Assembly: GCA_038087875.1 (NCBI GenBank)
Contig: CM075993.1
Coordinates: forward strand, 6,512,001-6,576,000
Source of the DNA: Malacoraja senta
Lineage: Eukaryota
Reading direction: 5' to 3'
Length of the DNA stretch: 64,000 bases
Part shown: positions 1 through 62,555 of the stretch, in pieces
How the letters are laid out: each line of letters begins with the position of its first letter
Position numbering within the stretch: position 1 is the stretch's first letter
The notes under the pieces: generated by a model
The model's input: only the letters and a program-made list of their open reading frames with translations
The model's database searches: none
What the model was told of the DNA's origin: nothing
Made by a program: the position numbers and the translations under genes

Positions 1-14
1 AACTCACCGTTATG
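1..14 (-). CDS. SEMA7A: SEMA7A-like copy B exon 5, first 14 nt (HNGE.., runs off the window)
   Basis: ttttacag| acceptor at 15-22, aligned with the copy A exon 5 acceptor and flanking intron. Confidence 0.65.
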
Positions 15-1602
15 CTGTAAAAGAAAGTAGTTTGATGGTTTTACCATTTAAATTTGATGGCCTTGCCTCTTTTCATTGACCAATAGACTCTGTGAGACGG
101 CAACACTTTGAGTGCTCAGGTCTCGACCCAAAACGTCACCCATTCCTTCTCTCCAGAGATACTGCCTGACCCATTGAGTTACCCCAGCATTTTGAGTCTA
201 TCTTCCTTTCTACACATTTCCTCGTTTAGTTTAATTTAGAGACACAGCGCGGAAACAAGCTCTTCGTCCCACCATGTCCCCGTCGACCAGCGATCCCCGC
301 ACACTAACATTATCCTATACGCACTAGGAACGATTTACAATTATACCAAAGCCAATTAACCTACAAACCGGCTCGTCTTTGGAGGGTGGGAGGAAACCGG
401 AGCTCCAGGAGAAAACTCACCCAGGTTACGGGGAGAACGTACAAACTCTGTACAGACAACACCTGTAGTTGGAATCGAACCTGTGTCTCTGGCGCTGTAA
501 GGCAGCAACTCTAACGCTGCGCCACCATGCCACCCTAAAATGCATATGGCGGGCATAGACTCAATGGGTCAAATGGCCTTTTTCCAATGTGCAACCTTTG
601 TGAATGTAATGTTCTTGGGTTAACTCCTCATCTTTAAACAGTGGCCAGGCCAGTAAATGGTGAGTTTGCTTGATCTCTGTGCGAAGATTTCCTGTAACTG
701 GGTTTCCTGTCTTCAAACAAATGTCGCCTGAAATCGCATTCTCGGAAATGGTGCAGTCTTTGTGAGTAAGTGAGAGATGAAACGTCGTCAGACATTTCAG
801 AGACTACGTCAATAGTGTATATCCGTTCAAATTGTTGCAAACAGGGTTAATAATGTACCCAGCAAAACACAAAGTGCTGGAGGAACTCAGCTGGTCAGGC
901 AGCATCTGTGGAGGGAACAGACTGACGATGTTTCGGGTCGGGACACTTCTTCAGACTGAAGTCGTTCTTCAGAACATTGAAGAAGTTCTCCCCCTCAGTC
1001 TGAAAAAGGGTCCCGAACCAAAACGTCACCAGCCCATTCTCTCCACAGATGCTGCCTGACTCACTGAGGTCATAAGTTCATGAGTGATAGGAGTAGAATT
1101 AGGCCATTCGGCTCATCAATTCTACTCTGCCATTCAATCATAGCTGATCTATCTCTCCCTCCTAACACCATTCTCCTGACTTCTCCCCATAACCCCTGAC
1201 ACCCGTACTAATCAATAATCCATCTATCTCTGCCTTAAAAAATATCCATCGTCTTGGCCTCCACAGCCTTCTGTGGCAATGAATCCCACAGATTCACCAC
1301 ACTCTGGCTAAAGAAATTCCTGCTCATCTCCTTCCTAAAGGAACGTCCTTTAATTCGGAGACAATGGCCTCTGGTCCTAGACTCTGCCACCAGTGGAGAC
1401 ATCCTCTCCACATCCACACTATCCAGGCCTTTCACTATGCCTCCAGCACTTTGAGTTTTATCTCAAGATTTCAGTGTCTGCAGCATCTTGCGTCTCCATG
1501 GTAATATTGCCACCATCTTGTTTCCATCTGCCTCCCCAAAACTTTAAGGTGTAAAGCACGATTCATATAAAGAAGTTGCAGAATTAGTCCACAGTTACTT
1601 AC

Positions 1603-1701
1603 CAACAGCCAGCATCGTGAGTTGGGCGAGTCAGTTGCACACACTAGGTGGTGACTTGTATTGAACCTCTGCAGGACCATGATATAATTCCCACAGGAAT
1701 C
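1603..1701 (-). CDS. SEMA7A: SEMA7A-like copy B exon 4 ([33 protein letters not shown])
   Basis: Paralog of 44615-44713, open frame, intact splice sites; 2 substitutions. Confidence 0.87.
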
Positions 1702-2726
1702 CTGGAATATAAAGGATATGATCAGTAACAGAGGCTAAACAATTGGTTCCTTTTGCATGCTGATATGGATCCAAGGAGAAGGTTTATTGAGAAATACCAA
1801 TTCAAGAAAACAGCTCCATTGGGAAGGGAAGGAGAGGTGGGGGCAGGACAAAGCCAAGCAAGTTGAGATTAGTCGCGTTAGATAGTTGAGTTAGTCAAGA
1901 GTTAGTTAGATTTATCTCTTAGGGCTAAGGGAATCAGGGGATATGGGGAGAAAGCAGGAACAGGGTACTGATTTTGGATGATCAGCCACTATCATATTGA
2001 ATGGTGGTGCTGGCTTGAAGGGCCGAATGGCCTATTCCTGCACCTATTTTCTATGGTTCCATGTTTCTAGATGGCTTGATAAATGGATTTTAAAGGTAGG
2101 AGTTATAGAGGGATTAAAAAAATAAAGTGAAGGGCCAAATGGTCGACTCCTACACCTATTTTCTATGGTTCTATGTTCTCTGTTGCTATGAGTTTAGTTT
2201 CGTTGAGGTTAGTTGAGTTTAGTTTATTGTCACGTGTACCGAGGTACAGTGAAGAGCTTTAGTTGCGGCTAACCAGTCAGCGGGGAGACAATACATGATT
2301 ACAATCGAGCCATTTACAGTGTACAGATAAAGGGAATAGCGTGAATAACATTTAGTGCAAGATAAAGTCCAGTAAAGTCCGATGAAAGATAGTCCAAGGG
2401 TCTCCAATGAGGTAGATGGTAGCTCAGTAGCCCGAGTGATAGGTGGATACAGATGAGGGGGCTGACTGGCAGACGGGTGAAGTGACAAAGGCTGGAGGTG
2501 AAACAGAGACAAAAGGGTGTCGGAAAGGGAGAGGAGGAGTGAAATGCTTTGGTTTGGTTCCAAGGAGAAAGTTTAATGACAAATACCCATTCATGAGAAC
2601 AGTGAGAGAGGGATGACATAAATACATGGTGCCGGGATCATCTTTGAGCCTTGTGCCAGGATATTGATTCCCCGCAGTGTCTAAACAAATGGACGCACTC
2701 CGAGCGATTCTGGAGCAGAAACTCAC

Positions 2727-2771
2727 CGAGTTTTGCCCTTGACATTTCTCAGCAACATCGGGCAGGTGGAT
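2727..2771 (-). CDS. SEMA7A: SEMA7A-like copy B exon 3 (IHLPDVAEKCQGQNS)
   Basis: Paralog of 45587-45631 with identical splice sites; 3 substitutions. Confidence 0.78.
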
Positions 2772-5186
2772 CTATAAGGTGAAGAGACAGGAAAAATGAT
2801 CACTACAGGACAATCCTCATTAATACAACACTGGGGCGTCACGGTGGCGCAGCGGGAGTGTTGCTGCCTTACAGTGCCTGCAGCGTCGGAGACCAGGGTT
2901 CGATCCCGTCTACGGGTGCTGTCTGTACGGAGTTTGTACGTTCTCCCTGTGACCTGCGTGGGTTTTCTCCGAGATTCCTCCCACACTCCAAAGACGTACA
3001 GGTTTGTAGGTTAATTGCCTTGTTATAAATGTAAAAAATTGTCCCTAGTGTGTGTGGGATAGTGTTAATGTGGGAGGAAACCGGAGCACCCGGAGGAAAC
3101 TCACAGGGAGAACGTGCAAACTCCGCACAGACAGCATCCGAGGTCAGGATCGAACCTGGGTCTCTGGTGCTGTGAGGCCGCAGCTCAACAGAAAGTTACC
3201 ATTATATGGTAAAACAGCGGGTCAGGCAGCATCTCTGGAGAGGAGGAATGGGTGACGTTTCGAGTCGAGACACTTCTTCAGACCCGAAACATCACCCATT
3301 CCTTCTCTCCAGAGATGCTGCCTGTCCCGCTGAGTTACTCCAGCATTTTGTGCCTACCTTCGGTGTAAACCAGCATCTGCAGTTCCTTCCTACACATGTT
3401 GTAACATATGTGGACAACACTAACCAATCATTAGTACTATGCTATTAGTACAATACTAACAAAACATAGCAATATATTAACAAAATTAATGCTGCTTTAT
3501 CACAGAAATCACGAGGTCATCGAAGATAGACACAAAATGCTGGAGTAACTCAGCGGGACAGGCAGCACCTCCTTCTGAAGAATGGTCTCGACCAGAAACA
3601 TCACCCATTCCTTCTCTGCAGAGATGCTGCCTGTCCCGCTGAGTTACTCCAGCATTTTGTGTCTATCTTAGGTGTAAACCAGCAACTGCAGTTCCTGCTT
3701 ACACAGTAGCCAGGTCATGTCTGGAGTATTAGAAGAGTATTACAAGCTTAGAATGTAAACAGCTGAACTTAAACTGGCAGCCAAGAGAAACATCCACTTC
3801 TAATCATAGCTTAAGGTCAGGGAGTTTTTTTTTACTATAAAAGGAACAAACAGATTTTAGATTAGGCTTTGTTCAGCTGTCAACACACCTGCAGGAGTCA
3901 ACAGTCACCCCAAGGACATCTATTTTCTGTCAATTATTGAATGCTGCATTATCTAGCTCTTATGCCTTTGATTCAAATAATTTAGTTGGGAGAGAAAATG
4001 CTACACTGTTTCAAGAATAACTCTGCCCACCCTTATCTTAGAATGTACATTGGTGCAAGTTCCTTTCTCTGAAACACATTGTTCCCAAATCTTGTTCATG
4101 TCTGAAAACACAGTGGTCCGTGAACATAACACTTCCAAAAGCACTGACTATTAAACCAACCAAACAGCCAATATTTTGAACAAAAAAGGCACAAAGTGCT
4201 GGAGTAACTCAGCGGGTCAGGCAGCATCTCTGGAGAAGTGACCTTTCTGGTCAGGACCCTTCTTCAGACATTTCTTCAAGTTGCTGTCTGACCCACTGAG
4301 CCACTTTGTGTCTCTTTTTTTTGCAAGCCAACATCTGCAGTACCTTGTGTTAAAGAAGGAACTGCAGATGCTGGAAAATCGAAGGTACACAAAAATGCTG
4401 GAGAAACTCAGCGGGTGCAGCAGCATCTATGGAGCGAAGGAAATAGGCAACGTTTCGGGCCGAAACCCTTCTTCAGACTTCTTCAACATCTGCAGTACCT
4501 TGTTTCTACCGCTAATATTTTGATTCTAGACCAAGACGCAGCGGTAGAGTTGCTGCCTTGCAGCGCCAGAGACCCGGGTTCGATCCTGACTATGGGTGCT
4601 GTCTGTACGGAGTTTGTACGTTCTCCCCGTGACCTGCATGGGTTTTCTCCAAGATCTTCGATTTCCTCCCACACTCCAAAGACGTACAAGTTTGTAGGTT
4701 AATTGGCTTGGTATAAATGTAAATTGTCCCTAGTGTGTGTAGGATAGTGTTAATGTGTGGAGATCGCTGGTTGGTACAGACTCGGTGGGCCAATGAGCCT
4801 GTTTCCGCGCTGTATCTCGAAACTAAACTGAACTAAACTAAAAAGGCACAAACTGCTGGAGTAACTCAGCGGGTCAAGCAGCATCTCTGGAGATGTGACC
4901 TTTTGGGTCGGGACCCTTCTTCAGACTCTTCTTCAAGGTGCTGCCTGACCCACTGAGTCAACTCAGCACTGTGTCTTTATTTTTTGTTAGCTAACATCTG
5001 CAGCACCTTCTTTTCACAGCCAATATTTTGACTCAAGACCAACTGAAATTAATTTAAACCAAGTGAAAGGAATGTGTAGCGGATTCACAACAACCCCATA
5101 CGTTTATGAGCCAAACATAAAGTGCTGGAGGAACTCAGCGGGTCAGGCAGCATCTGGGGAGGGAATGGACAGGTGATGTTTCGGGT

Positions 5187-5552
5187 CAAGTCAAGTCAAG
5201 TCACTTTTATTTCTATAGCACATTTAAAAAACAACTCTCGTTGACCAAAGTGCTTTACATTGGTGGAGGTACTAATGTTATACAACAGTGGTTCATAGAT
5301 TAAGTACATACATAAATACATACATATAGCCCGCCCTCAGAGGACGTCAAGAAAGGCTTGAGAGTAAAGATGAGTTTTAAGTCTCGACTTAAAGGAGTCG
5401 ATGGAGGGGGAAGTTCTGATGGGAAGAGGGATGCTGTTCCACAGTCTAGGAGCTGCAACCACAAAGGCGCGGTCGCCCCTGAGCTTATGCCTAGACAGCG
5501 GGATGGTCAGTAACCCCAAGTTGGCCGATCTGAGGGACCTGGAGGTGGTGTG
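5187..5552 (-). mobile_element. L2 3' fragment (copy B only)
   Basis: [15 protein letters not shown]...FKSRLKTHLY; (GACTT)n tail. Confidence 0.8.
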
Positions 5553-6380
5553 GTGGTTCAGGACCCTTCTTCTGACTGATTAGAGTAATAATAATAATAA
5601 TAATGCATTTTATTTGCTGGCGCCTTTCTGGACACCCAAGGACACCTTACAGGACATAAAATCACCAAAAATACCAAGGTCTCAAGGACACCTTACAGAG
5701 ACCAACAAATAAGAAACACATAATCGGAATAAAATAAATTATAAAGACACCACAATACACAAATCAAGGACAGAATTCATTCCAAAGGCACAAAAAAGAA
5801 AATCAGAAACACAATTTGAGGAGAGAGCAGCGGCAGCCAAACCGCGCCAGCGTCCACTCTCCCCTCCGACCGCCATCTTGAACACAGACCAACAAAGACA
5901 CAAGTAAGGGGGAAGAATGCTGGAAAAGAGAGGTGGGGGCAGGACAAAGCCTGGCAAGTTGAGTTTAGTGGAGTTTAGTTTGTTGTTACGTGTAACGAGG
6001 TACGGTGAAAAGCTTTTGTTGCGTGCTAACCAGGCAGCGGAAAGACAATAAATGTTCATGACCGAGCCATGAAGAAGGGTCTCGACCCGAAACGTCGCCC
6101 ATTCATTCTCTCCAGAGATGTTGCCTGTCCCACTGAGTTACTCCAGCATTTTGTGTCTATCTTCGAGCCATTTACAGTGTACATATACATGATAAAGGGA
6201 ATAGCGTGAATAACATTTAGTGCAAGATAAAGTCCAGTAAAGTCCGATGAAAGATAATCCGAGGGTCTCCAACGAGGTAGATGGTAGCTCAGTAGCCCGA
6301 GTGATAGGTGGATACAGATGAGGGGGCTGACTGGCAGATGGGTGAAGTGACAAAGGCTGGAGGTGAAACGCAGGCAAAAC

Positions 6381-6766
6381 CAAAGATCCTATAGCAAGCA
6401 AGATAGACCACTCCTGCTAAATGCAATGGGCTGACGTGTAGTACGCAACGGAACGTGGGCCTTTTTTTCATCCATTTTCATAACCGGACCCGACCCGACC
6501 AGCAGTGTAATCAACGTTGCAGGGGAACAGTTTGTGTTAATAAATTAAAATTCTGAAAATGAGAAGATTTCTACCAAATAACTTTTATTTTTACGAGGAT
6601 GTTTCCGTAACCGGCTTCCGTCTCCGCACTATTATCCTATGGGATCTTTGGTGCGGAGACGGAAGCCGGTTACGGAAATGGGGCCTTAAATTACCCATGA
6701 ATCTGCCCATGACCGTACTACGTCTTTTTCGTCGAGTGGACTATCTTGCTCGCTATAGGATCTTTG
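6381..6766. mobile_element. Non-autonomous DNA transposon (MITE; CA..TG ends, possibly P-like)
   Basis: About 33-bp TIR CAAAGATCCTATAGC(A/G)AGCAAGATAG.CCACTC; 8-bp TSD GGCAAAAC/GGCAAAAA; empty site in copy A at about 47964. Confidence 0.85.
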
Positions 6767-7324
6767 GGCAAAAAGGTGTCGGAAAGGGAGAGGAGGGAGT
6801 GAAATGTAAAGCTGGCGGGAGGAATGTGGGTTGAAAGGGATGGAGGAAGGGGAAAGAGGAGTGGCAGGAAAAGAAATCAAAGCCCTGGGGATGGGAGACC
6901 AGTGTAGAATAAAGTGGAAAGAGGCAGGGTGACTGTGGAGGCTGGTGAGAGATAGTGGGAGAAATGGGAGCACACCAGAGTGGGGATATGGGAAAGATAA
7001 GGGCATGGGGGGTGGGGGGAGGGGTATACCCCTCCATTTTGTTGCAGGCTACCCTGTGATGTTTAGTTTAATTTAGAGATACAGCGCGGAAACAGGGCCT
7101 TTCGGCCTAACGTGTCGGCACCGACCAGCGATCCCCGCACATCAACACTATTCCCACACACACTAGGGACAATTTTACATTTGTACCAAGCCAATTATCC
7201 TGTACGTCTTTGGAGTGTGGGAGGAAACAGGAGATGTCAGAGAAAACCCACGCAGGTCACGGGGAGAACATGCAAGCTCCTTACACGCAGCACCTGTAGT
7301 CGGGATCGAACCCGGGTCTCTGGC

Positions 7325-7650
7325 TTGTTCCTCCAGTTTGCGCGTGGCCTCACTCTGGCAATGGAGATGGCCCAGGACAGAAAGGTCAGTGTGGGAATGG
7401 GAAGGGGAGATAAAATGGTTAAAAGAGGAGATCCAGCAGGCCTTGGCGGACCAAGAGCCAGTGTTCAGCAAAATGGTCATCGAGTCTACGCTTGGTCTCG
7501 CCGATGTACATTAGGAACATCAAATTCCATCTCCAGACCTGCTGAGTTCCTTCCAAACACTTTGTTATTGGCTCATAAATGTGTGGGGTACGAAGAATGG
7601 TCCTGACCCGAAACATCACCGATCCATGTTCTCCAGATCGCCCTGACGTG
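7325..7650 (-). mobile_element. Penelope-like element remnant (GIY-YIG endonuclease)
   Basis: YIGETKRRL.DHFAEH ... NHF.SPSHSH.DLSVLG...EATRKLEEQ. Confidence 0.75.
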
Positions 7651-10145
7651 GAGGGCTCGATCACCGGCTACGGGAGCCAAGATCGTCCCATCAACGGAAG
7701 GCTCGAGGCCCCCGACCACGGGAGAACAAAGAAGGGAAGAGATTGAACTTTTTTTCGCCTTCCACCACAGTGAGGATACTTCTTCATCTTGCGTATGGCG
7801 TGCACAGCCTAAAGTTGTAGGACATCTTGTTCTATTTGATCTTATTTGATGGTGCACGCCGGGTTGATTGCATTCGTCGAGACAGGCCGGACCAAGTGAA
7901 GGTTGCAATCTTCCACCCCCCCAATGAGGAATGTGGAGGAGTCACTGTGGTGGATGTTTAGGTTAAAATGTATTTTGTGTTGGTCTGTTGCATTTGTTTG
8001 GTAGAACTGTATGGCAAATGTACTTTCCCATATGTTGCAAAACATACTTGGCTAATAAAGTATGATTATGACTATGATTCTTATTACATAAATGTGTGGG
8101 ATTGTTATGAATACTCTGAATGTTCTGATCGCTTGGTTTAAATTGATTTCAGGTGGTCTCGAGTCAAAATATTGCAGTTATCTGCATTCTTTTGTCTCCA
8201 GACACTCGCACGTCTTTCTTTCATTTATCCCTCTCTCCTTTGAAGGTTGATTAAAGTCTGTATTACGAGCCTAAACCTGTAATTTATTAACATCCAGCTG
8301 AGTGCCTTTGGGCATTCCACATTTCCACAAGGAAAAAAAATGACACAAAGTGCTGGAGTAACTCAGCTGGTCAGGCACTATCTCTGGAGAACATGTCTAG
8401 GCTAAGTCTCAGCAGGTAAACCGGCATCTGCGGTTCCTTGTTTCCTCCTTCTCAACAACCTTGCCCCACTCAGTCTTAGTTTAGTTTAGAGATACAGTGC
8501 AGAAACAGGCACTTAGCCCCACCGGGTCTGCGCCGACCAGTGTTCCCCGCACACTTACACTATCCTACACACACCAGGGACGATTTTACACTTATACCGA
8601 GCCAATTAACCTACAAATTAACCTACAAACCTGTACGTCTTTGGAGTGTGGGGGGAAACCAGAGATCCCGGAGAAAACCCACGCTGGTCACGGGGAGAAC
8701 GTACAAACTCCACACAGACAGCACCCGTAGTCGGGATCAAACCCGGGTCTCTGGCGCTGTAAGGCAGCAACTCTACTGCTGCGCCAACAGGGCCACCCCT
8801 ATGCCTTTTTCCCTGTTGTAGTAACTTGTTTTCACTCAGTTCTCCAGACTCAGGCTTTTCCAAACAGACTTGTACGGTTTCAGACAGATTCCTTTCTTCT
8901 TTTCTGTCTCCCTTGTGGTTAATGACAATGAGCAGACTTGGGATATCAAAGTGATTTGTTGCCTAAGGTTTGCAGTTGGAATGTAGACTTTAGTTGTCAA
9001 TGTTCATCGTGTCATAGGAGCAGAATTAGGCCATTCGGCCCATCGAGACTACTCCACCTTTCAATCATGGCTGATCTATCTTTCCCTCCAAACCCCATTC
9101 TCCTGCCTTCTTCCCATAACCCCTGACACCCGTACTAATCAAGAATCTATCAATCTTTGCCTTAAAAATACCCAATGACTTGGCCTCCATCTCTGTTGAG
9201 GTCAGGATAATGGGAAGTAACATTTGCAACATACAAACGTCTTAAGAGACTTGCCCAAGGTTATGACCGATTCACCTCAATCCCATTGGTCTTTGGTCTT
9301 TGTATACTGAACTAGTGCGCTACAATGCTGAGAACTATATTCTGCACTCTGTATCTTCCCCTTTGCTCTACCCATTGTACTTGAGGTGACCTGATTGTTT
9401 TTTCTCCGACTTCAAGCAACCCCTGCATCCCTTCTCTCTCCGTCCCTCACCCACCCAAGTCATCGTACTGGTTTCAAAGTCTTCCTCTTGAGTCTCATTG
9501 CCTGTAACTCGTTCTCACCTCGCCCACAGCTGATGTTTCCTTTATCATCGTTACTTTTTGCATATCTTTCATTCATTTTTTCTATATCTCTCGAAATCAC
9601 CGTCTATATCTCTCGTTTCGCTTTCCCCGACTCTCAGTCCTAAGAAGGGTCTCGACCCGAACGTCACCCATTCCTTCCCTCCAGAGATGCTGCCTGTCTC
9701 GCTGAGTTACTCCAGCTTTTTGTGTCTATCTTCGGTTTAAACCAGCATCTGCAGTTCCTTCCTGCACAATTCCCCAGAGATGCTGCCTGACCCGCTGAGT
9801 TACTCCAGCACTCTGTGTCTTCTTGTGTAAACCAGTATCTGCAGTTCCTTGGCTTTCTAACCCGCGGTGTACAAGAATGCCCGCGAAGCATTTCACCTTC
9901 ACATTCTTACACTTTCCGAAATTACGTGCAATTATTTGCCGGGACATGTGTCCCCTGTGCAAGTTGAAACATTGCTGGTTTAAACTGAAGGTAAACACAA
10001 AAAGCTGGAGTAACTCATCGGGTCAAACAGCATCTCTGGAGAAAAGGAATAGGTGACCTTTCTGGTCGAGACCCTTCTTCAGACTGAGAGTCAGGGGAAA
10101 GGGAAACGAGAGATATAGACAGTGATATAGAGAGATATACATACA

Positions 10146-14100: not shown

Positions 14101-14475
14101 CTCCAAGCCAATGGTTTAGTTTGATGGCCTCTCAATAACCTGAAACGTTAGCCCCTGATCCGAGCTGTGCGAGAAGAGAAAGAGCAGCACGGTGGCGCAG
14201 GGGTAGAGTTGCTGCCTCACAGCGCCAGAGCCCCGGGTCCCCGGTTCGATCCTGACTCTGTCTGTGCTGTCTGTACGGAGTTTGTACGTTCTCCCTGTGA
14301 CCCGCGTGGATTTTCTCCGAGATCTTCGGTTTACTCCCACACTCCAAAGGCCTACAAGTTTGTAGGTTAGTTGGCTGATGTGACACACAATAAGCCCTTC
14401 AAACCAGCTCTGCCATTCAATAAGATCATGGCCTTGTCCTCCTCCCCTCCATTTAAAAATTCCAAGCTTTAATTA

Positions 14476-51400: not shown

Positions 51401-54400
51401 GTCTATCTTTGGTATAAATCAGCATCTACGGTTCCTTCCTACACAATTAAGGAACCTAGCTGAGTTATCCTTTCATATTTTAGTGGTGCAAAATGTCATG
51501 ATAAATGGTATTCCCGCCATAGCCTACTGAATTACTGCTTCCCACATTTCATACTGTTAAAGAAACTTGTCACTAGAGGTGTAGGATAGTGCTGGTGTAC
51601 TGGGTGATCGCTGACAAAAAACTTTCAGGAAAAATCCCAATTGTACAGGACCTATTCTCTCCGTTTCTCACTCCATCTCTGTCCAACCATCTCCCAATCA
51701 ATAACCACCCTCACCTGTATCCACCTATTACTTGTCAGGTTAGACACAAAATGATGGAGTAACTCAGCGGGTCAGGCGGCATCTCTGGAGAGAAGGAATG
51801 GTGAAAGGATTGGGATCGAGACTCTTCTTCAGCGAGGTATGGAGCGAAGTGGAGGATAAATGTGTGGCTGAAGGACTGGTGCAGTGGACAGGGATTCAAG
51901 TTTCTGGATCATTGGGACCTCTTTTGGGGAAGGTGTGACCTGTACAAAAAGGATGGGTTGCACTTGAACCCGAGGGGGACCAATATCCTGGCGGGGAGAT
52001 CTGCAAAGGCTACTGCGGAGACTTTAAACTAGAACGGTTGGGGGGAGGGACTCAAATAGAGAAAGCTTGTAGACAGTGTGTGAGGCAGGAGGCAGAGAAG
52101 GGAAGCACTCAGACCCAACAGGTAGGGGGGGAAAGAAGAAAAAAATAATAAACAGAGAATAAGAGGTGGTGGGTTTCTTAAATGTGTGAGCAGAGAGACA
52201 GAGGGGTGTAAAATGAGGGTAGAAGCAATAGGTAGCAAGGTGGAAAGTAAACGTGGCAGGCAGACAAATCCAGGGCAAAAATCAAAAAGGGCCACTTTTC
52301 AACATAATTGTATAAGGGGTAAGAGCGTTGTAAAAACAAGCCTGAAGGCTTTGTGTCTCAATGCAAGGAGCATTCGTAATAAGGTGGATGAGTTGAATGT
52401 GCAGATAGCTATTAATGATTATGATATAGTTGGGATCACGGAGACATGGCTCCAGGGTGACCAAGGCTGGGAGCTGAACATCCAGGGATATTCAATATTC
52501 AGGAGGGATAGACAGAAAGGAAAAGGAGGTGGGGTAGCGTTGCTGGTTAGAGAGGAGATTAACGCAATGGAAAGGAAGGATATTAGCTTGGAGGATGTGG
52601 AATCGATATGGGTAGAGCTACGAAACACTAAGGGGCAGAAAACGCTAGTGGGTGTTGTGTACAGGCCACCTAACAGTAGTAGTGGAGTTGGGCATGGCAT
52701 CAAACAGGAAATTAGAAATGCATGCAACAAAGGTAAAACAGTTATAATGGGTGACTTCAATCTACATATAGATTGGGTGAATCAAATTGGCAGGGGTGCT
52801 GAGGAAGAGGATTTCTTGTAATGTATGCGGGATAGTTTTCTAAACCAACATTTAGAGGAACCAACGAGAGAGCAGGCTATTCTAGACTGGGTATTGAGTA
52901 ATGAGGAAGGGTTAGTTAGCAGTCTTGTTGAGCGTGGCCCCTTGGGCAAGAGTGACCATAATATGGTTGAGTTCTTCATTAGGATGGAGAGTGACATTGT
53001 TAATTCAGAAAAAAGGGTTCTGAACTTAAAGAAAGGTAACTTTGAGGGTATGAAACGTGAATTGGCCAAGATTGACTGGCAATTGATTCTTAAATGGTTG
53101 ATGGTGGATATGCAATGGAAGGCATTTAAAGACTGCATGGATGAACTACAAAAATTGTTCATCCCAGTTTGGCAAAAGAATAAATCAGGGAAGGTAGTGC
53201 ATCCGTGGATAACAAGGGAAATCAGGGATAGTATCAAAACAAAAGATGAAGCGTACAAATTAGCCAGAAAAAGCAGCATACCAGAGGACTGGGAGAAATT
53301 GAGAGTCCAGCAGAGGAGGACAAAGGGCTTAATTAGGAAAGGGGAAATAGATTATGAAAGAAAACTGGCAGGGAACATAAAAACTGACTGCAAAGGTTTT
53401 TATAGATATGTGAAGAGAAAGAGATTAGTTAAAACAAATGTAGGTCCCTTGCAGTCAGAAACCGGTGAATTGATCATGGGGAACAAGGACATGGCAGACC
53501 AATTGAATAACTACTTTGGTTCTGTCTTCACTAAGGAAGACAAAAATAATCTGCCGGAAATAGCAGGGGACCGCGGGTCAAATGAGATAGAGGAACTGAG
53601 TGAAATCCAGGTTAGCCGGGAAGTGGTGTTAGGTAAATTGAATGGATTAAAGGCCGATAAATCCCCAGGGCCAGATAGGCTGCATCCCAGAGTACTTAAG
53701 GAAGTAGCCCCAGAAATAGTGGATGCATTAGTGATAATTTTTCAAAACTCCTTAGATTCTGGAGTAGTTCCTGAGGATTGGAGGGTAGCTAATGTAACCC
53801 CCCTTTTTAAAAAGGGAGGGAGAGAGAAAATGGGGAATTACAGACCAGTTAGTCTAACATCGGTAGTGGGGAAACTGCTAGTCAGTTATTAAAGATGGGA
53901 TAGGAGCACATTTGGAAAGTGGTGAAATCATTGGACAAAGTCAGCATGGATTTACGAAAGGTAAATCATGTCTGACGAATCTTATAGAATTTTTCGAGGA
54001 TGTAACTAGTAGAGTGGATAAGGGAGAACCAGTGGATGTGTTATATCTGGACTTTCAGAAGGCTTTCGACAAGGTCCCACATAAGAAATTAGTATACAAA
54101 CTTAAAGCACACGGTATTGGGGGTTCAGTATTGATGTGGATAGAGAACTGGCTGGCAAACAGGAAGCAAAGAGTAGGAGTAAACGGGTCCTTTTCAGAAT
54201 GGCAGGCAGTGACTAGTGGGGTACCGCAAGGCTCAGTGCTGGGACCCCAGCTATTTACAATATATATTAATGATTTGGACGAGGGAATTGAATGCAACAT
54301 CTCCAAGTTTGCGGATGACACAAAGCTGGGGGGCAGTGTTAGCTGTGAGGAGGATGCTAAGAGGCTGCAAGGTGACTTGGATAGGCTGCGTGAGTGGGCA

Positions 54401-57400
54401 AATGCATGGCAGATGCAGTATAATGTGGATAAATGTGAGGTTATCCACTTTGGTGGCAAAAACAGGAAAGTAGACTATTATCTAAATGGTGGCAGATTAG
54501 GAAAAGGGGAGATGCAACGAGACCTGGGTGTCATGGTACACCAGTCATTGAAAGTAGGCATGCAGGTGCAGCAGGCAGTGAAGAAAGCGAATGGTATGTT
54601 AGCATTCATAGCAAAAGGATTTGAGTATAGGAGCAGGGAGGTTCTACGGCAGTTGTACAGGGTCTTGGTGAGACCACACCTGGAGTATTGCGTACAGTTT
54701 TGGTCTCCAAATCTGAGGAAAGACATTCTTGCCATAGAGGGAGTACAGAGAAGGTTCACCAGACTGATTCCTGGGATGTCAGGACTTTCATATGAAGAAA
54801 GACTGGATAGACTCGGCTTGTACTCGCTAGAATTTAGAAGATTGAGGGGGGATCTTATAGAAACTTACAAAATTCTTAAGGGATTGGACAGGCTAGATGC
54901 AGGAAGATTGTTCGCGATGTTGGGGAAGTCCAGGACAAGGGGTCACAGTTTAAGGATTAAGGGGAAATCCTTTAGGACCGAGATGAGAAAAACATTTTTC
55001 ACACAGAGAGTGGTGAATCTCTGGAACTCTCTGCCACAGAAGGTAGTTGAGGCCAGTTCATTGGCTATATTTAAGAGGGAGTTAGATGTGGCCCTTGTGG
55101 CTAAAGCGATCAGGGGGTATGGAGAGAAGGCAGGTACAGGATACTGAGTTGGATGATCAGCCATGATCATATTGAATGGCGGTGCAGGCTCGAAGGGCCG
55201 AATGGCCTACTCCTGCACCTATTTTCTATGTTTCTATGTTTCAGACTAGTCAGGGGAAAGGGAAACGAGAGATATGGACGGTGATGTAAGAAGATATGGA
55301 ACAAATGAATGAAAGATATGCAAACAATCTACAATGATAAAGGAAACCGGCTATTATCTGCTGTTTGCTAGATGAGAACGAGAAGCTGGTGCGACTTGGA
55401 TGGGGGAGAGATGGAGAGAGAGGGAATGCAGGGGTTACTTGAAGTAAGAGAAATCAGTATTCATACCATTGGGCTATAAGTCTTTGTCCCGCCCCTCCTC
55501 TCTTCCCGTTTCCTCCCCCATCCCACCGCAATCATTCTGATGAAGGTTCCCTACCCCAGAATGTCACCAATCCATGTTCTCCAGGGATGCTGCCTGACCC
55601 GCGGAGTTACTCCAGCACTTTGTGTCTGGGAAATCCATCTGCAGATGCTGGTTTAAACCGAAGATAGACACAAAATGCTGGAGTAACTCAGCGGCAGCAT
55701 CTCTGGAGAGAAGGAATGGATGACGTTTCGGGTCTGAAGAAGGGTCTCGAGCTGAAACGTCACCCATTCCTTCCCTCCAGAGATGCTGCCTATCCCGCTG
55801 AGTTACTCCAGCATTTTGCGTCTGTATTCATACGAAATGAGGTGATCTAGGTTTCGACAACCTGTTGGTGAATTCAGGAGCAGGTTGGTTCGACTGTACC
55901 TTATTCAGGGTGGACGAGTCATCGAAGTTAATCCGATAGAGAACTCCGTTTCCACCAACATATAGGTTCCTTCCTTCGAGGAGTGTGGTGGCAAATTGTT
56001 CAACTTGCTGAAAGTTAGCCCGTTTTGTGTTGTGATCTGTAGGGACACAGAGCAGCATATCGTTAATGACCTTGGTTTAGTTTAGAGATACAACGCTGAA
56101 ACAGGCCCTTCGGCCCACCGAGTCTGCGCCGACCAGCGATCCCCACACACTATCCTGCACACACTAGGGATAATTCTACACTTATACCAAGCCAATCAAC
56201 CTACAAACCTGTAGGTCTTTGGAGTGTGAGAGGAAACCGAAGATCTCAAAAAAATACAGGCGGTCACCTGGAGAACGGTAAAACTCAATAAAGAAAGCAC
56301 CAGTGCTGGAACCTGGGTATCTGCCGCTGTGAGCTCTGTAAGGCAGCAACTCTACCACTGCCCCACCATGCCACCCCTTAAACTAATTGCATTAATCACA
56401 AAGAAGAACAAGGCTTCCCTTGACAAAATGTCAGTCACAGTAAGTGGAAATCAAGTACTCGAAGTACTTAGGGACGACAGATGGCGCAATGGGCTAAGTG
56501 TTCGGCTGGCAACCGGAAGGTAGCCGGTTCGAATCCCGCTTGGAGTGCATACTGTCGTTGTGTCCTTGGGCAAGACACTTCACCCACCTTTGCCTGCGTG
56601 TGAATGTGTGTGAATGTGTGTGAGTGATTGGTGGTGGTCGGAGGGGCCGTAGGCGCAGATTAGCAGCCACGCTTCCGTCAGTCTGCCCCAGGGCAGCTGT
56701 GGCTACAGAAGTAGCTCACCACACCCTTTCAGCGAACAGCTCACTTTTAACAATACTAAAACCAATTCAAAATAGTTAAGAGATAAAGAGTGAGGAATAT
56801 ATGTAACTGAATACAATTGAAGTCAGAATGAAACATATATATATATGCTGTAACTAGGGTGAAATAGAACTGATTTGGAAACGGTACAGACCCCCTAGGT
56901 TTTGGGTAATAAAGGCAGCGCGGCTAACGTCATAACATCTACGCCGGAAGCGATATAGATGTCGTACCCCACAGACGAGTGGGACACTCACTACGGTGTT
57001 GAAATCTCAGACACCGTACACTTATTTGATATACTTTTATTTTTTATTTTTATCACAATACGTCACATCTATGTGTTTTCTTTCCAAGGACAATCGCGGA
57101 GGAGAACTACCAAGGAAGTCTATAATAGAAATGCCCCCAAAATAACCAGTCCTGAGGTATGAATGCACCATAATAAATAAGATCATTAAAATTGGTAAAA
57201 ATGTATGATGATAATCAAAACAAAATGGGAGGAATCACACTATGTAGCTGGAATATAAGGGGTATTAATGAACCTATTAAAAGGAGCAAGGTACTAGCTC
57301 AGTTGAAATCATACAACACGGACATTTCGTTTCTACAGGAAACGCATCTTAAACATCAAGATCAGACGAGATTGAGGGCGAACTGGATAGGACAAACATT

Positions 57401-60400
57401 TCACTCTTCATTCACCTCCAAATCTAGAGGCACTGCAATCATCATTCGTAAAGGAATTCCATTTAAATCAAAGAATACTATTTTAGATAAGGAAGGGAGA
57501 TACCTTATAGTAGCAGGAGAGATCAATAATACGCCAATTACGCTGGTAAATATATACGCGCCCAATTTCGATAACCCTCAATTTTTAAATAAAATTCTGA
57601 ATATAATTGCAGAATTTAATTTTCAAAATGTTATAATTGGAGGAGACTTTAACTGTGTTTTAGACCCTTATCTAGATAAATCGATGCAAAAACAAAAAGG
57701 TAATATGAAATCTAAAACCAGTGAACTTTTACATACATATATGGAAAACACAAATATAGCAGATGTGTGGAGGATTGCAAACCCGACGGGAAGGGATTAT
57801 TCGTTTTATTCAACGGTGCATAAAACATACTCACGGATAGACTACTTTCTTGTGGATACAAAATTAATTCCGCACACTATGAACGCTAAATACCACACTA
57901 ATGCGATCTCAGACCACTCTCCGTTAACTTTTGTTTTAAAACTAGAAGGAATGTCTATGAATAAATCGTTCTGGAGGTTTAACTCGCAAATTTTAAAAGA
58001 CCCACAAGGGAGTATATATCTAAAAAAACAGATGGATCTATTTTTTGAGATAAATGATACACCAGATATTTCCCCCACGCTATTATGGGAATCCTTCAAA
58101 GCATTTATTAGAGGAGTCATTATTTCATTCCAAGCTTATCAAAATAAAAAGAATAAGAATGAACAAAGACATTTAGAAGAACAAATAAAACAATTAGATA
58201 CAGATAATGCTAAAGACCCAACTATGGATAAACATAATAAAATCCTACTATTGAAATTCAAGCTAAATAAATTACTGTCAGAGAAAGTTATAACATTATT
58301 TCAAATCACAAAACAAGAACACTTCGAATTCGGGGACAAACCCCACAAACCCCTAGCACGGCAACTGAAAAAACGGGAAAAAGAGAATGCAATATTAAAG
58401 ATTAAATCAGACAGAGGGGAATTATTAACACTACCCAAGGATATCAATAAAAGATTTGCTCAATTTTACCAGAATCTATACACATCTAAAACGTTAATAG
58501 ACAATAATAAAATCTCAGAATTTTTAGATAACTGTAACCTACCACAATTAGAACTGAGGGAACAAGAGGAACTGGGAGCACAAATTACTTCTAAAGAGAT
58601 AGAAGACACAATAAAAACACTAAAGAATGGAAAAACACCAGGACCAGACGGATTCAGTAATGAATTTTATAAATCTTTTTATGACATAGTTACTCCACGT
58701 TTACAGAAAATGTATACACATGCTTTTAAAGAGCAAAACTTACCTGAAACACTAGCAGAATCAACGATCATATTAATACTTAAAAAAGATAAAAATATAG
58801 AAGAACCAGGATCATAGAGAGCTATAGCTTTGTTAAATACGGATCAAAAAATAATAGCGAAAACACTAGCCAGTAGACTAAGCAGGTATGTTAGTAGACT
58901 AATAAATGAGGATCAAACAGGATTTATACCTAAGAGACATTCATTTAATAATTTGAGACGTTTGCTTAACATAATGCACTCGCATAAATCTCAGGACCAA
59001 GAGTTATCTATCATCTCATTGGACGCAGAAAAAGCGTTTGATCAAGTAGAATGGGACTATATGTTTAAAGTATTGCAAAAATTCCAATTGGGAGAGAACT
59101 TCATTGCATGGATAAAACTATTATATAACAAACCTACGGCTAGAATACTAACTAATAATATATTATCCTCGAAATTTGAACTATCAAGGGGCAATAGACA
59201 AGGATGTTCATTATCACCGCTGTTATTTGCTTTAGTAATTGAACCCCTTGCTGAAAAAATAAGAACACACATGGATATTTACGGTTATAATACAAAATAT
59301 TCAAATAACAAAATATCCTTATATGCCGATGACGTACTATTGTACATCACAAAACCACAAATTAGTATACCAAATATATTAAATTTAATTGAGGACTTTG
59401 GATCCTTTTCAGGATATAGAATAAACTGGAACAAAAGTGAAATTATGTCGATAAAACCAAAAGACTCAACACCTCAGGAAAATCCCCTTTAAAATAGCTA
59501 TAGAAAAAAATTCAAATATTTTGGGAATTGAAATTTACTAGAAATTACCAGGATATGTTTAAAGCCAATTATAATCCCTTCAGAAATTAAATAATATGAT
59601 TAAATTCTGGAAAACACTTCCGATGTCCTTAATAGGCAGAATAAATTGCTATAAAAATGATTTTTCTTACCACAAATTCCTATACCTATTTCAATCAATA
59701 CCTATATATCTCCCAAAAAAGTTTTCAAAAAATTGGACTCAGACCATAACAAATTTATATGGGATTATAAATCCCATAGAATACAAAGAGCACACCTTAA
59801 TAAACGAAAAGAGTTTGGGGGGTCTCACGCTCCCTAACTTTATGTATTATAAATGGGCAGTAAATATTAAAATATGATTCACCTGCTGGACAATTCTGCC
59901 CAGCAGGTGACCTGATTATAATGGAAAAAGAGGACTGTTCCCCCGAGTAATATAGGAGCGATTATTCCTCTCCCAATAAATTTGAATAATAAAAATTATA
60001 ATAAAAACCCAATTATAAATAGCACAATTAGAACATGGAAACAAATAAAACAGAATCTAAAATTAAGAAACCTATCTCTCTCAATACCAATAGTTAATAA
60101 CCCATCGTTTAAACCTTCAACCATAGACAAATCATTTATACAATGGGAAAAGAATGGGAATCAAAACGCTCGAAGATCTGTATGAATTGGGAAAATTTAC
60201 TATCATTTCAACACTACAACTGAAATATATCTGAAAAATAATCAATATTTTAAATATCTACAAATTCGTGATTACCTGAAAAAATACACAAAAAGACTAT
60301 CATAATATGCCTTCCGACTTACTAGATGAAGCAATGAAGACAAAGGCGGAATCAGCTAATCTAATATCGTACTTATATAATATCATTTTAAACATAGAAA

Positions 60401-62555
60401 TACCCACAACAGAAGAATTAGAAGAGACTGGGAACAAGAATTAGCTATAAAAATTTCAAAAGAGAGCTGGGATAACCACTTACTACAGGTGCATAAATGT
60501 TCGATCAACGTACGACATACGCTCATCCAATTCAAAACATTACATAGACTATATTTATTCAAGAACTAAATTAAATAAAATCTTTCCTATGTTCACCAAT
60601 CTGTGATAAATGTCTATCTCAAGAAGCTACCATAGCGCATTCTTTTGTTTTTTGTACAAAAATCCAAAATTTTTGGTATGAAATATTTGATATTTTCTCA
60701 AATTAATTAAAATAAAACTGGTACCAAAACCAGAATGGATCATTTTTGGAATATCGGAAGGTATCCCTGAATTAAACGTGTATCAGAAGAACTTAATTCA
60801 ATTACGGGCTAATAATGGGAAAAAGGCTCATACTTAAATTCTGGAAAAATGCGCCCACACCAACAATAAAAATGTGGACATCAAATATGTTGGAAACATT
60901 ACATCTGGAAGAGATGAGATTCCTCTTAGCAGGGAAAGCAGACCAATTCCAAAGACGTGGTCTACGTTTTTTGGACCCATTACAAGCATGAGGTGCAATA
61001 GTAATTTAAAAAATAAATAAATAAGAATGGTATCAGGACCTGGTAATGGGAGGTAAAACAATAAAAACAGACTTGGTTGGTGGTTCCCTTTCTGCGATTG
61101 TTCCTACTTTCTTTTTCTTTCTTTTCTAGGATCTACTTTCTTACTTTACTTCCTTCTCTAACTTCTTTCTAAGGGGCTTTCTTTTCACAACACTCTTTTG
61201 CACCTCACGACTCTTGCGCACTTTCTTTACTTTTCTTACTTCTATCTTTCTCTTAAAGCTCAAAAAAATGAAGCGGTATAAAAAATGTATTAAGATATAA
61301 GTGTTGTGTATTACTGTAATTTACCGTACTTCTAATAAAAATAATTTAAAAAAAAAAAAAAAAAAGTAGCTCACCACCACCGAGTGTGACTGAGGAGTGA
61401 ATGAATAATGCGATGTAAAGCGCCTTGAGTATTAGAAAGGCGCTATATAAATCCCATCCATTATTATTATTATTATTACTCGGTTCATTAACTATGTTCT
61501 CCAGATCATGTTCTAGGAGCAGAGTTAGGCCATTCGGCCCATCAAGTCTACTCCGCCATCCAATCATGGCTGATCTATCTCTCCCTCTCAACCCCATTCT
61601 CCTGCCTTCTGCCCATAACCCCTGACACCCAGGATACTCTCAATGGAAAATATTGAAGCATATTAGTATCAGGTTGGCCCTGGGAAAATAGTTAAGGCAG
61701 GTACAATAACAGCATTGAAAATCATTTAGATTGGTATATGGATAAGAATGGTATAGAACAGAACATAGATCAGTACAATAGACAGACACAAAATGCTGGA
61801 GTAACTCAGCGGGACAGGCAGCATCTCCAGTTCGAAGAGAGGTCTCGACCAGAAATGTCGCCTATTCCTTCTCTCCAGAGATGTTGCCCGGCCGCTGAGT
61901 TACCCCAGCACTTTGTTTTTCTCAAGACTCCAGCATCTGCAGTTTCTCGTGTTTGCAAGAGAGACATAGATCAAGAACGATGTAGATAGGATATGAATGA
62001 AATGAATGAATGAATGAATGAATGAATAAGTTTATCGGCCAAGTATTCACATACAAGAATGTCCTTGGTGTGGCGTGGTGCATGGATCAAGTGCGGCGCT
62101 AATCATTAGTTGGCGAGGAGGGCAGTAAATATGATGGGAATATTGAATAACGGTTGCAGAGAAAAATGACTTAAGATAGATCAATGGATACAGAGAGGTA
62201 TTTGGAGACAAATTAATATCGCAACCGATCTGGGCCTCGTCGCCCGCTCAGTTCAAGGACAAATCTATAAACAGCGGCGGGTCTGTGGGCTGGAAGGGGA
62301 TCACCCACCCGGCGATTGAGGTCCAATCCCGGGACCCCACTGCTATCCCGGAGACCATCAGCTCCTTATACCCGGGGTACACGGGCTCCCCGGCGCTCCC
62401 TCACTGACAGACCCCGGCGCTCCCTCACTCTCCATCTCCAGGGGATAGATACCCGGTCGCGGACACTCACCCGTCAGTGTGTGTTTGAGCCGCGGGCTGG
62501 TGGTGGTGGCGGCGCCGGCGATGAGCAGCAGTAGAGCGGGCAGCAAGAGGACCAT
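18379..62555 (-). CDS. SEMA7A: Semaphorin-7A-like gene, copy A (exons 1-11; signal peptide + Sema domain; PSI/Ig/GPI exons not visible, presumably in the gap)
   Basis: Eleven exons with AG/GT boundaries and mutually compatible phases once the exon 8-10 indels are corrected. Joined peptide has Sema motifs ([80 protein letters not shown]). Exon layout, including the tiny exon 3, matches my recollection of vertebrate SEMA7A. Subfamily assignment is not confirmed by a search. Confidence 0.85.
18580..21968 (+). mobile_element. Degenerate CR1 LINE ORF2, interrupted at 20918-21708
   Basis: Continuous similarity to the 52.3-55.2 kb CR1, with many indels; CR1-type 3' tail. Confidence 0.88.
20918..21708 (-). 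mobile_element. Rex1/Babar-like LINE 3' fragment
   Basis: [21 protein letters not shown]...VESFKFLG; (TTCA)n tail. Confidence 0.75.
23430..23980 (+). mobile_element. CR1 3' fragment
   Basis: Matches the 54690-55240 CR1 end, including the tail. Confidence 0.8.
24010..24204 (-). CDS. SEMA7A: SEMA7A-like copy A exon 10 ([16 protein letters not shown][-1][18 protein letters not shown]...LILAM); -1 frameshift as assembled
   Basis: ctgcag| acceptor, G|GTAGGT donor; 195 nt where 196 is needed; frame switch near 24152-24162. Confidence 0.85.
25361..25475 (-). CDS. SEMA7A: SEMA7A-like copy A exon 9 ([23 protein letters not shown]...PRPGT); in-frame TAA as assembled
   Basis: ttttcag| acceptor, ACG|GTGAGG donor, 115 nt; TAA at 25376-25378; two compensating 1-nt indels would give [17 protein letters not shown]. 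Confidence 0.85.
25540..25865 (+). mobile_element. Penelope-like element 3' end + terminal repeat
   Basis: [24 protein letters not shown] followed by the CTGAAGAAGGGTCTCGACCC(A)AAACGTCACCC repeat, which recurs dozens of times in the window, often as inverted pairs. Confidence 0.8.
26696..26875 (-). CDS. SEMA7A: SEMA7A-like copy A exon 8 ([20 protein letters not shown][+1][19 protein letters not shown]...[10 protein letters not shown]); +1 frameshift as assembled
   Basis: ccacag| acceptor, TG|GTGAGT donor; 180 nt where 179 restores frame; extra base in the G4 run at 26814-26817. Confidence 0.88.
27615..28405. repeat. Degenerate minisatellite (about 30-bp unit, about 25 copies) derived from the exon-7/intron-7 junction
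   Basis: Repeating CAC(T/C)CACCTT(A/G)CACACTCGGG(G/C)AAGG; the last unit overlaps the exon 7 end. Confidence 0.88.
28390..28511 (-). CDS. SEMA7A: SEMA7A-like copy A exon 7 ([41 protein letters not shown])
   Basis: cccttcag| acceptor, AAG|GTGGGT donor, 122 nt; hallmark YxFFRE and SRIARVCK motifs. Confidence 0.92.
28836..29448 (-). mobile_element. Tx1-clade LINE 3' fragment
   Basis: GDLGWR..H...[17 protein letters not shown] zinc knuckle, [13 protein letters not shown]-terminus. Confidence 0.75.
32785..33420 (+). CDS. DIRS gag-like ORF (3' part)
   Basis: 211-aa ORF in the gag position (PxNC..L.VP.VN..IW; LLFGEDL..VKDL). Confidence 0.65.
   Translation: MKEEQQDSDDESYEDQSPITEPKIPGLAQKFAVPRLTGEPLGDELAMTINYLLSHQLQELTMDETVKKYETPQNCALLAVPAVNNVIWGYLGIAVRSQEMKLQRVLKLLGSGITAFARGFDEEHVSGCQQDALALMCSAHFEINCIRKSAIRPNIHPKFAGLCKPSNIQLPHLLFGEDLAKRVKDLNEEAKTVGMMKPLVLGRSIRRQLPY
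33685..35086 (+). mobile_element. 5'-truncated L2-clade LINE with open RT ORF (33696-34958), inserted in the DIRS RT
   Basis: [54 protein letters not shown]; (TAT)n tail; TATTG at both junctions. Confidence 0.92.
35087..35938 (+). pseudogene. DIRS reverse transcriptase (disrupted)
   Basis: [30 protein letters not shown] (35605-35616), YLGFTI; stops and frameshifts; split by the L2 and L1 insertions. Confidence 0.88.
35939..38066 (-). mobile_element. 5'-truncated L1 LINE inserted in DIRS
   Basis: Poly(A) on minus at 35939; ORF2 3' half with CCHC motif ([15 protein letters not shown]); 14-bp TSD ATTATCAGCAATTG (35925-35938 / 38067-38080). Confidence 0.93.
38067..39028 (+). CDS. DIRS RNase H + DNA adenine-methylase-like domain
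   Basis: [35 protein letters not shown]; then IDLFASRLN...DAF...YAFPPF. Confidence 0.85.
38998..40023 (+). pseudogene. DIRS tyrosine recombinase (one in-frame TGA at 39523-39525)
   Basis: Catalytic R (AQRV), HSTR, GW and Y (FHKYY); the two ORF-track pieces are in the same frame. Confidence 0.88.
41397..42125 (-). mobile_element. CR1 RT fragment
   Basis: [25 protein letters not shown]. Confidence 0.88.
42558..42668 (-). CDS. SEMA7A: SEMA7A-like copy A exon 6 ([37 protein letters not shown])
   Basis: ctacag| acceptor, G|GTAAGC donor, 111 nt, phase 1 to 1. Confidence 0.87.
42756..42858 (-). CDS. SEMA7A: SEMA7A-like copy A exon 5 (FKNELKEF...[13 protein letters not shown])
   Basis: ttttacag| acceptor, G|GTAAGT donor, 103 nt, phase 0 to 1. 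Confidence 0.82.
43606..43640 (-). ncRNA. Minimal hammerhead-ribozyme-like motif in a Penelope terminal repeat (representative copy)
   Basis: Minus strand CUGAAGA-A-GGGUC-UC-GACCC-GAAA-CG-UC; palindromic ACGU helix III; helix I only about 2 bp. Confidence 0.55.
44615..44713 (-). CDS. SEMA7A: SEMA7A-like copy A exon 4 ([33 protein letters not shown])
   Basis: attccag| acceptor, |GTAAGT donor, 99 nt; CxNYI...LVCAT...CW Sema motif. Confidence 0.9.
45587..45631 (-). CDS. SEMA7A: SEMA7A-like copy A exon 3 ([15 protein letters not shown])
   Basis: Polypyrimidine tract + ttatag|, donor TCG|GTGAGT, 45 nt, contains a Cys; splice sites conserved in copy B. Confidence 0.8.
46912..47225 (+). mobile_element. 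HE1-type V-SINE (representative; about 20 other copies, e.g. 225-535-, 2835-3075+, 4536-4842+, 8478-8800-, 24560-24862-, 26008-26270+, 26340-26665-, 29445-29690+, 43072-43385-, 56075-56375-)
   Basis: tRNA-like A box GGTGGCGCAGCGG and B box GGTTCGATCC, V-domain (GTTTGTACGTTCTCCCCGTG...TTTCCTCCCACACTCCAAAGAC), CR1-like tail ending (AAACT)n. Confidence 0.85.
49712..50070 (+). mobile_element. tRNA-derived SINE with L2-type tail, inserted in an HE1 SINE (copy A only); second copy 56471-56722 + 61366-61478 is split by the L1
   Basis: A/B boxes (TGGCGCAATGG; GTTCGAATCCC), tail GTAAAGCGCCTTGAG...(ATT)n resembling the L2 end at 35020-35086; TAGAGT duplicated at the junctions. Confidence 0.82.
51833..55240 (+). 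mobile_element. CR1-clade LINE: ORF1 3' end (SGNH esterase) + near-complete ORF2 (APE endonuclease + RT)
   Basis: DGLHLN esterase motif ending at 52032; ORFs 52186-52821, 52825-53892, 53912-55147 ([28 protein letters not shown]); one stop and one frameshift; TTTCTATG tail; absent from copy B. Confidence 0.95.
55900..56036 (-). CDS. SEMA7A: SEMA7A-like copy A exon 2 (DHNTKRANF...[23 protein letters not shown])
   Basis: Acceptor ccctacag|, donor AAG|GTACAG, 137 nt, phase 1 to 0; LYVGG motif. Confidence 0.88.
56723..61365 (+). mobile_element. L1 LINE, 5'-truncated (complete ORF2 span, no ORF1), inserted in a SINE
   Basis: EN (SWNIRG, LQETH, GGDFN, SRIDY, SDH) and RT ([20 protein letters not shown]); poly(A) 61348-61365; TSD (AA)GTAGCTCACCAC 56711-56722 / 61366-61377. 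Confidence 0.95.

Follow-up and report, generated by a model that had tools for sequence, protein, structure and literature searches.

A 64,000-nucleotide (nt) stretch of the genome of the skate Malacoraja senta (GenBank assembly GCA_038087875.1, contig CM075993.1, positions 6,512,001 to 6,576,000; hereafter the window) carries two copies of a gene resembling the semaphorin SEMA7A, one on each side of an assembly gap, and very probably records a true duplication of that gene. SEMA7A, which acts in immunity and nerve guidance, is single copy in mammals, and the human protein is CD108, of the JMH blood group. We also favor, with less assurance, the fuller reading that these are two real tandem paralogs between which the assembly is broken, that the interruptions in the reading frame of the more complete copy (copy A) are mostly consensus errors, and that the two genes represent an elasmobranch pair kept by gene conversion.

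Two SEMA7A-like copies flanking an assembly gap

The only assembly gap in the window, 200 N at 16692–16891 in the window sequence, separates copy B (1–16690, minus strand), which runs from part of intron 2 to the start of exon 5, from copy A. Chained alignment joins 1–16690 to 42845–55346 of copy A (minus strand) in the same orientation through 18 blocks and 7144 columns, bearing out an original prediction, made from the sequence by itself, that 1–16691 is a colinear copy of this segment. Thirteen matches, each 200 bp or longer and no less than 88% identical (7050 bp in all), link copy B to 42845–55346; control 12.5-kb segments gave 0 and 0, and one control overlapping 42845–55346 gave 1, and similarity by chance or through repeats alone was rejected on the strength of 13 long matches against none in two other segments. 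The copies differ by 372 substitutions in 7249 columns of 16 hand-picked blocks (5.1%, Kimura two-parameter distance 0.053). Their global alignment contains 19 gaps of at least 80 bp (14 confined to B and 5 to A, measuring up to 5168 and 3409 bp respectively, with a few being fragments of one insertion), in keeping with the many copy-specific insertions first noted. Intron 2 holds both a B-only 5.2-kb insertion of mixed repeats (6868–12035, no strand assigned) and an A-only 3.4-kb long interspersed nuclear element (LINE) insertion on the plus strand (51841–55249) with endonuclease and reverse transcriptase open reading frames (ORFs); inspection of insertion flanks in the window established no clear target-site duplications. 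Within the B-only insertion, at 10550–11156, 6.5 copies of a 70-bp tandem repeat precede an array of short units.

Copy B ends 554 bp short of where the 3′ end of exon 2 would lie, close to the predicted distance of about 550 bp. The last 112 bp of copy B (16579–16690) differ from A by 1 substitution and 3 short insertions in runs and have the look of a poor contig end. Because the exon 1–2 region of copy B alone would need ~7 kb, the 200 N are nominal. The gap would hide the end of copy A that encodes the PSI domain, the Ig domain and the glycosylphosphatidylinositol (GPI) signal together with the first two exons of copy B. A search of the window for the missing parts (PSI, Ig and tail of A; exons 1–2 and 6–11 of B) returned no match better than E 0.7. 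The number of genes at the locus should await closure of the gap.

Copy A is a SEMA7A-class gene of 11 exons on the minus strand, running from 62555 to 18379 and built from a splice-site scan, inspection and tblastn with relatives. Exon 1 (62471–62555, 85 nt) opens with an ATG at 62555, encodes a hydrophobic signal-peptide-like stretch and aligns with the N-termini of the related proteins P0001 and P0012; a further in-frame ATG lies upstream at 62681. Exon 2 (55900–56036, 137 nt) is 84% identical to P0001, exon 3 (45587–45631, 45 nt) is placed by splice sites and alignment to relatives, and splice sites and tblastn define exon 4 (44615–44713, 99 nt), exon 5 (42756–42858, 103 nt) and exon 6 (42558–42668, 111 nt). 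Exon 7 (28390–28511, 122 nt), 95% identical to P0001, ends at the site of the human Arg-Gly-Asp (RGD) motif. It is followed by exon 8 (26696–26875, 180 nt), exon 9 (25361–25475, 115 nt), exon 10 (24010–24204, 195 nt) and exon 11 (18379–18491, 113 nt), the last being, as anticipated, the final exon before the gap; the missing exons of copy A would be 12–14 by the numbering of the human gene. All exons of copy A lie on the minus strand.

Three exons of copy B, the last only in part, fall within the window, also on the minus strand: exon 3 (2727–2771) with 3 differences from A and exon 4 (1603–1701) with 2, all of them amino-acid changing, and the first 14 nt of exon 5 (1–14), which encode HNGE where A has FKNE and differ from A at 5 positions. 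The AG and GT splice sites of exons 3 and 4 are intact in both copies. The claim that exons 3, 4 and 5 all have intact splice sites in both copies thus stands for exons 3 and 4 but does not hold as worded for exon 5, of which copy B contributes the acceptor and 14 nt, with the donor outside the window. A consensus-like donor motif occurs in copy B seven bases past the exon 5 acceptor, and A is without it.

Paralogy and the reading frame of copy A

True paralogs are favored because the divergence between A and B is joined by two in-frame types of exon 10 at similar depth in one sequencing run. The A/B divergence is ~25 times the mean diversity of 0.002 given for a shark in PMC10587355, although the skate's own diversity may differ, and the 5.1% substitution level together with 19 large copy-specific gaps places the copies beyond allelic variation by that shark yardstick. 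We compared 23900–27100 with contigs from four runs (X1, X2, X3 and X18) of the 24 listed as matching; none of the listed runs is recorded as RNA, which has no bearing on expression, the joints between contigs were swamped by repeats, and stretches without read cover prove nothing. Run X1 contains two types of exon 10, both of which restore the frame, on contigs with depths of 40.9 and 42.7, and the seven other listed X1 contigs, a non-random set, have depths of 23–64, which does not suggest half depth; the depth of a contig does not measure copy number, and X1 could come from the assembled sample itself, so this comparison is a hint only. A second type of exon 8 carries the identical 5 substitutions in X1 and X2, which are different samples. 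In X18, a 2299-nt contig holds exons 8 and 10 separated by ~110 nt, a spacing that would suit spliced RNA from a related species.

Coding differences between the copies were counted in copy B, which has 158 nt of visible coding sequence, and in the second read type. All 10 differences across 156 coding nt of A and B fall in amino-acid-changing codons, as do 13 of the 16 listed differences between A and the second read type, where ~72% is expected. These counts show no trace of purifying selection acting between A and B. They give a weak hint of diversifying selection, relaxed constraint on A being an equally good fit, and we rejected positive selection as a firm claim: the pooled test (23 of 26 nt against 0.725 expected, one-sided p 0.047) combines copy B with a read type of uncertain copy and uses the listed read differences only. 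At the 3 exon-3 differences, B rather than A agrees with the Amblyraja protein; exon 4 of B is A-like, and its exon 5 start HNGE recurs in Amblyraja and Leucoraja, while the FKNE of A is shared with one Mobula lineage. By these four codons, copy B is patchy and looks mosaic.

Compared with three references, the frame of copy A is broken four times, near 26815 (+1, exon 8), 25404 (−1) and 25376 (+1) (exon 9, two compensating one-base breaks with a stop between them), and 24155 (−1, exon 10), a feature that the original prediction had left unconsidered. Literal splicing of copy A runs into a stop within exon 8. Each break involves one base in a short run, and all four fall within exons 8–10, which make up 490 of 1305 coding nt (p 0.02). 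The exon 10 break is likely an assembly error because a 256-nt X1 contig matches 23951–24205 with 0 substitutions and one gap, the extra base at the break; the missing base is also present in X3 and X18 contigs. X1, X2, X3 and X18 each have one contig without the exon 8 break. We therefore judge it likelier that the breaks in A are mostly consensus errors, with support from reads at exon 10 and by extension at the others, and copy A would be annotated as broken, probably wrongly. At the intronic positions 24266 and 25055, one-base differences from the window are common to contigs of two or three runs and are probably further consensus errors.

Several observations weigh against reading the breaks as errors. 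The X1 and X2 contigs that restore the exon 8 frame carry substitutions and may come from the other copy, and the two breaks of exon 9 are not among the differences listed, with 12 indel and 160 substitution differences lying outside those listed. Private one-base indels in repeats near the breaks are in mild excess (5 of 2201 against 3 of 5466 sites, p 0.048), below the 4 in 490 nt seen in the exons. These points bear on an alternative that we consider unlikely, in which both tandem copies exist but B is the one that works, copy A being a young pseudogene or null allele with some genuine breaks. The four breaks in 490 nt are more than the indel signal of nearby repeats would give, the excess of amino-acid-changing differences described above fits relaxed constraint, and the breaks in exons 8 and 9 may be present on A-type molecules. 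Set against this, the only break open to a check on a contig identical to A, that of exon 10, is missing there, and once the frame is followed copy A contains no nonsense codon or nonsense substitution, its splice sites are intact and the other 815 nt of its exons are unbroken. A processed pseudogene was rejected outright, as introns are present.

The preference for real paralogs over haplotypes, which the original prediction drew from copy-specific insertions, gains from the divergence, the insertions and the two exon-10 types, and stays at probable since no molecule spans the gap. Counting against paralogy, no read or contig crosses from one copy to the other, and the layout, in which the left contig ends inside sequence that occurs again in the right contig, is the one expected of overlapping haplotigs. 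Also on this side, the second type in X1 and X2 covers exons for which B is outside the window and may not be B, and X3 has one type only among its listed differences. According to Ko et al. 2022 (PMC9516828), false duplications usually have a gap between the copies and a high error content, and the false heterotype duplications described there share with the skate locus a gap between the copies, complementary incomplete ends and raised indel error. On such a view, the two contigs would be very divergent haplotypes of one SEMA7A placed end to end, with B supplying exon 3 onward, A supplying exons 1–11 and nothing hidden in the gap. The overlap geometry is an exact fit, gap and error are hallmarks in that source, and two X1 types at equal depth would fit alleles if full run depth were ~85. 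However, the seven other listed X1 contigs lie at 23–64 and not at ~85. The false heterotype duplications in the same paper show ~1.5- to 1.8-fold raised heterozygosity, unlike the 5% divergence and many copy-specific insertions here, and two alleles 5.1% apart, each with insertions of kilobase size, would call for a balanced polymorphism of great age. Two-copy loci are moreover the rule in relatives, and we regard false duplication as distinctly improbable. It is very improbable that B is a real but incomplete duplicate lacking exons 1–2 or the exons further on, and so a remnant without coding function next to an intact A, for although only its short coding stretch is visible, no difference from A there is silent and it has more insertions (14 versus 5), its visible splice sites and frames are intact, the runs contain a second in-frame type of exons 8 and 10, and it is B that sides with Amblyraja in exon 3.

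Semaphorin class and domain content

Having weighed these alternatives, we return to copy A as a gene of a probable tandem pair and consider its class. Translated with X at the frame breaks, it matches the Amblyraja protein at 82% identity over 430 columns and a Leucoraja-cluster protein at 80%. A homolog search with exon 7 returned 10 proteins, the best of them skate records named semaphorin-7A-like at 95% and 93%, and a search with exon 10 returned 14 candidates, none at E ≤ 1. In a Pfam scan of seven exon peptides, two matched the Sema domain (PF01403): exon 10 (E 2.5e-5), above the cut-off, and exon 11 (E 3.8e-4), below it. The Sema domain, the 80–82% identity over ~430 columns to full Sema proteins and a putative signal peptide judged by eye place the protein among semaphorins.

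A 133-row FastTree phylogeny, midpoint rooted and with 10 unnamed rows looked up, groups the window protein with sequences named SEMA7A in a clade of 53 rows (support 100); the other 80 rows include SEMA3B, SEMA4G and SEMA4E-like proteins. Structure rankings agree with this placement, and the SEMA7A-like identity first proposed is upheld by both. The skate relative P0012 scores 291 bits against human SEMA7A compared with 211 for SEMA3A and 179 for SEMA4D, and human SEMA7A (3NVQ) is the best Protein Data Bank (PDB) match both for P0012 and for exon 8 of the window (E 7e-4). PDB searches with exons 2, 10 and 11 were uninformative (best for exon 10: SEMA4D, E 0.39), and the exon 7 match was weak. 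A SEMA4D identity was rejected, the elasmobranch proteins named semaphorin-4D-like (P0004, P0106 and P0132) being short forms nested among SEMA7A-like sequences.

Mammalian SEMA7A combines a Sema–PSI–Ig–GPI layout with an RGD integrin motif, according to PMC6016892. Among relatives of the skate protein, P0012, P0001 and P0003 have a PSI domain, a weak Ig match below the cut-off occurs in P0003 only, and the full-length proteins P0012 and P0003 end in a short hydrophobic tail by eye. Where human SEMA7A has RGD, skate copy A has KDD at the aligned site, across the exon 7/8 junction. RGD was also absent at this site from all 21 fish, amphibian and reptile proteins (of 23) in which the flanking motif was found. 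RGD is a mammalian trait and does not define the class. Both skate copies probably encode a GPI-anchored class 7 semaphorin, and family membership with the missing RGD makes predicted signaling through plexin C1, rather than RGD–integrin contact, most likely.

SEMA7A-like pairs in other elasmobranchs and gene conversion

Among the best 120 of 2424 matches, at least 13 of 19 elasmobranch species have two SEMA7A-like proteins: Pristis, Hemitrygon, Hypanus, two Mobula, Pristiophorus, Heptranchias, Cetorhinus, Carcharodon, Rhincodon, Stegostoma, Hemiscyllium and Chiloscyllium. Amblyraja, Leucoraja, Narcine, Heterodontus, Mustelus and Scyliorhinus canicula have one each among the matches listed. 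In 12 of the 13 two-protein species, both genes are on contigs of equal size. RefSeq pairs such as Pristis XP_051898326/328, Mobula birostris XP_072138445/447, Hypanus XP_059802127/128, Heptranchias XP_067829497/499 and Chiloscyllium XP_072409252/253 resemble the skate locus in that a single contig holds both SEMA7A-like genes, whose accession numbers often all but follow one another, an adjacency read from those numbers and equal contig size rather than from coordinates. In the catfish Tachysurus vachellii, six consecutive locus tags (Q7C36_009507–009512) belong to one SEMA7A-like cluster (the P0173 cluster). The recurrence in elasmobranchs and the catfish array leave the lineage-specific expansion proposed at the outset without support; arrays of SEMA7A are a repeated feature of animals other than mammals. 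In the 133-row tree, divergent SEMA7A-like proteins of fish also form a 20-row clade beside canonical fish SEMA7A.

Copy A groups with XP_032870717.1 (Amblyraja radiata) and XP_055518580.1 (Leucoraja erinacea) at 100/100, as sister to the Amblyraja and Leucoraja group (94/86) rather than inside it, with outgroup-like states in exons 4–5; unlike either protein, it has the four frame breaks. Pairs outside stingrays and mantas are 87–98% identical (Heptranchias 98.3%). The stingray and manta pair is old, with copies 64–67% identical that sort by copy and not by species. In a 45-row tree, 7 of 9 non-myliobatiform pairs are within-species sisters (support at least 98/93), the four Hemiscyllium and Chiloscyllium proteins have no clear pairing, and four stingray and manta species share two old lineages. 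We tested informative sites in three shark quartets for runs, after dropping two Y-pattern sites from each of Hemiscyllium/Chiloscyllium and Rhincodon/Stegostoma. Hemiscyllium/Chiloscyllium has 20 within-species and 16 cross-species sites in 7 runs among 36 sites (p 3e-5), and Rhincodon/Stegostoma has 23 and 9 in 6 runs among 32 (p 5e-4). Such blocks of cross-species signal, in pairs that for the most part group by species, suggest that an old pair has been subject to partial gene conversion.

Three points weigh against this interpretation. Amblyraja and Leucoraja, the relatives with which copy A groups, have one protein each among the matches listed; the Cetorhinus/Carcharodon quartet has no blocks (23 and 3 sites; p 1.0); and annotated pairs could include false duplications, with Heptranchias at 98.3%, or chimeric gene models that mimic blocks. 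On the preferred reading, the skate pair, apparently head to tail on the minus strand with the assembly broken between the copies, would be a local instance of the two-copy locus of most elasmobranchs. Unequal crossing-over and patchy conversion, as the trees and quartets suggest, would keep copies alike within a species while some exon blocks retain an older identity, and the 5% intron divergence would date the last duplication or homogenization and not necessarily the origin of the pair. A more extended proposal is plausible but falls somewhat short of probable: a tandem SEMA7A pair would have persisted through much of shark and ray history under exon-scale conversion with protein-level divergence under selection, as might be anticipated for a surface ligand that poxviruses have copied, B would be a mosaic with a tract edge at the exon 5 acceptor, and the stingray and manta pair would have escaped conversion to yield two distinct proteins.

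As a single locus the probable skate pair is ordinary, one more SEMA7A-like tandem pair of the kind already in automatic annotation, and the wider elasmobranch pattern is the useful part. If true, the extended proposal would add a case of concerted evolution, so far undescribed, to a family considered to be single-copy; a search of titles and abstract beginnings found no literature on SEMA7A duplication in elasmobranchs, although gene-family tables in shark genome supplements may mention it. If most elasmobranchs keep two exchanging, fast-changing genes, SEMA7A outside mammals would resemble an immune gene family evolving by birth-and-death and conversion, which is directly testable with existing genomes. 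In the 133-row tree, an avipoxvirus semaphorin (P0215) nests on long branches among tetrapod SEMA7A rows.

No neighboring gene was found within the window, and repeats surround and interrupt copy A. A minisatellite of ~31-bp units (27617–28400) begins exactly at the exon 7 donor, its first unit repeating the last bases of exon 7, and may provide alternative donor sites. An RNase H-containing retroelement ORF (63191–63946) occupies part of the likely promoter region, ~640 bp upstream of the start codon, and intron 1 contains a long LINE (57177–61365) with an open 546-amino-acid endonuclease-containing frame. At 31941–40504, an 8.6-kb element splits an older repeat whose halves are contiguous at 19416–20295. 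This element, which we take to be DIRS-like, has a weak integrase N-terminal match and a nested reverse-transcriptase ORF (33576–34958), and an inverted piece within it (35936–38059) is 77% identical to 59252–61365.

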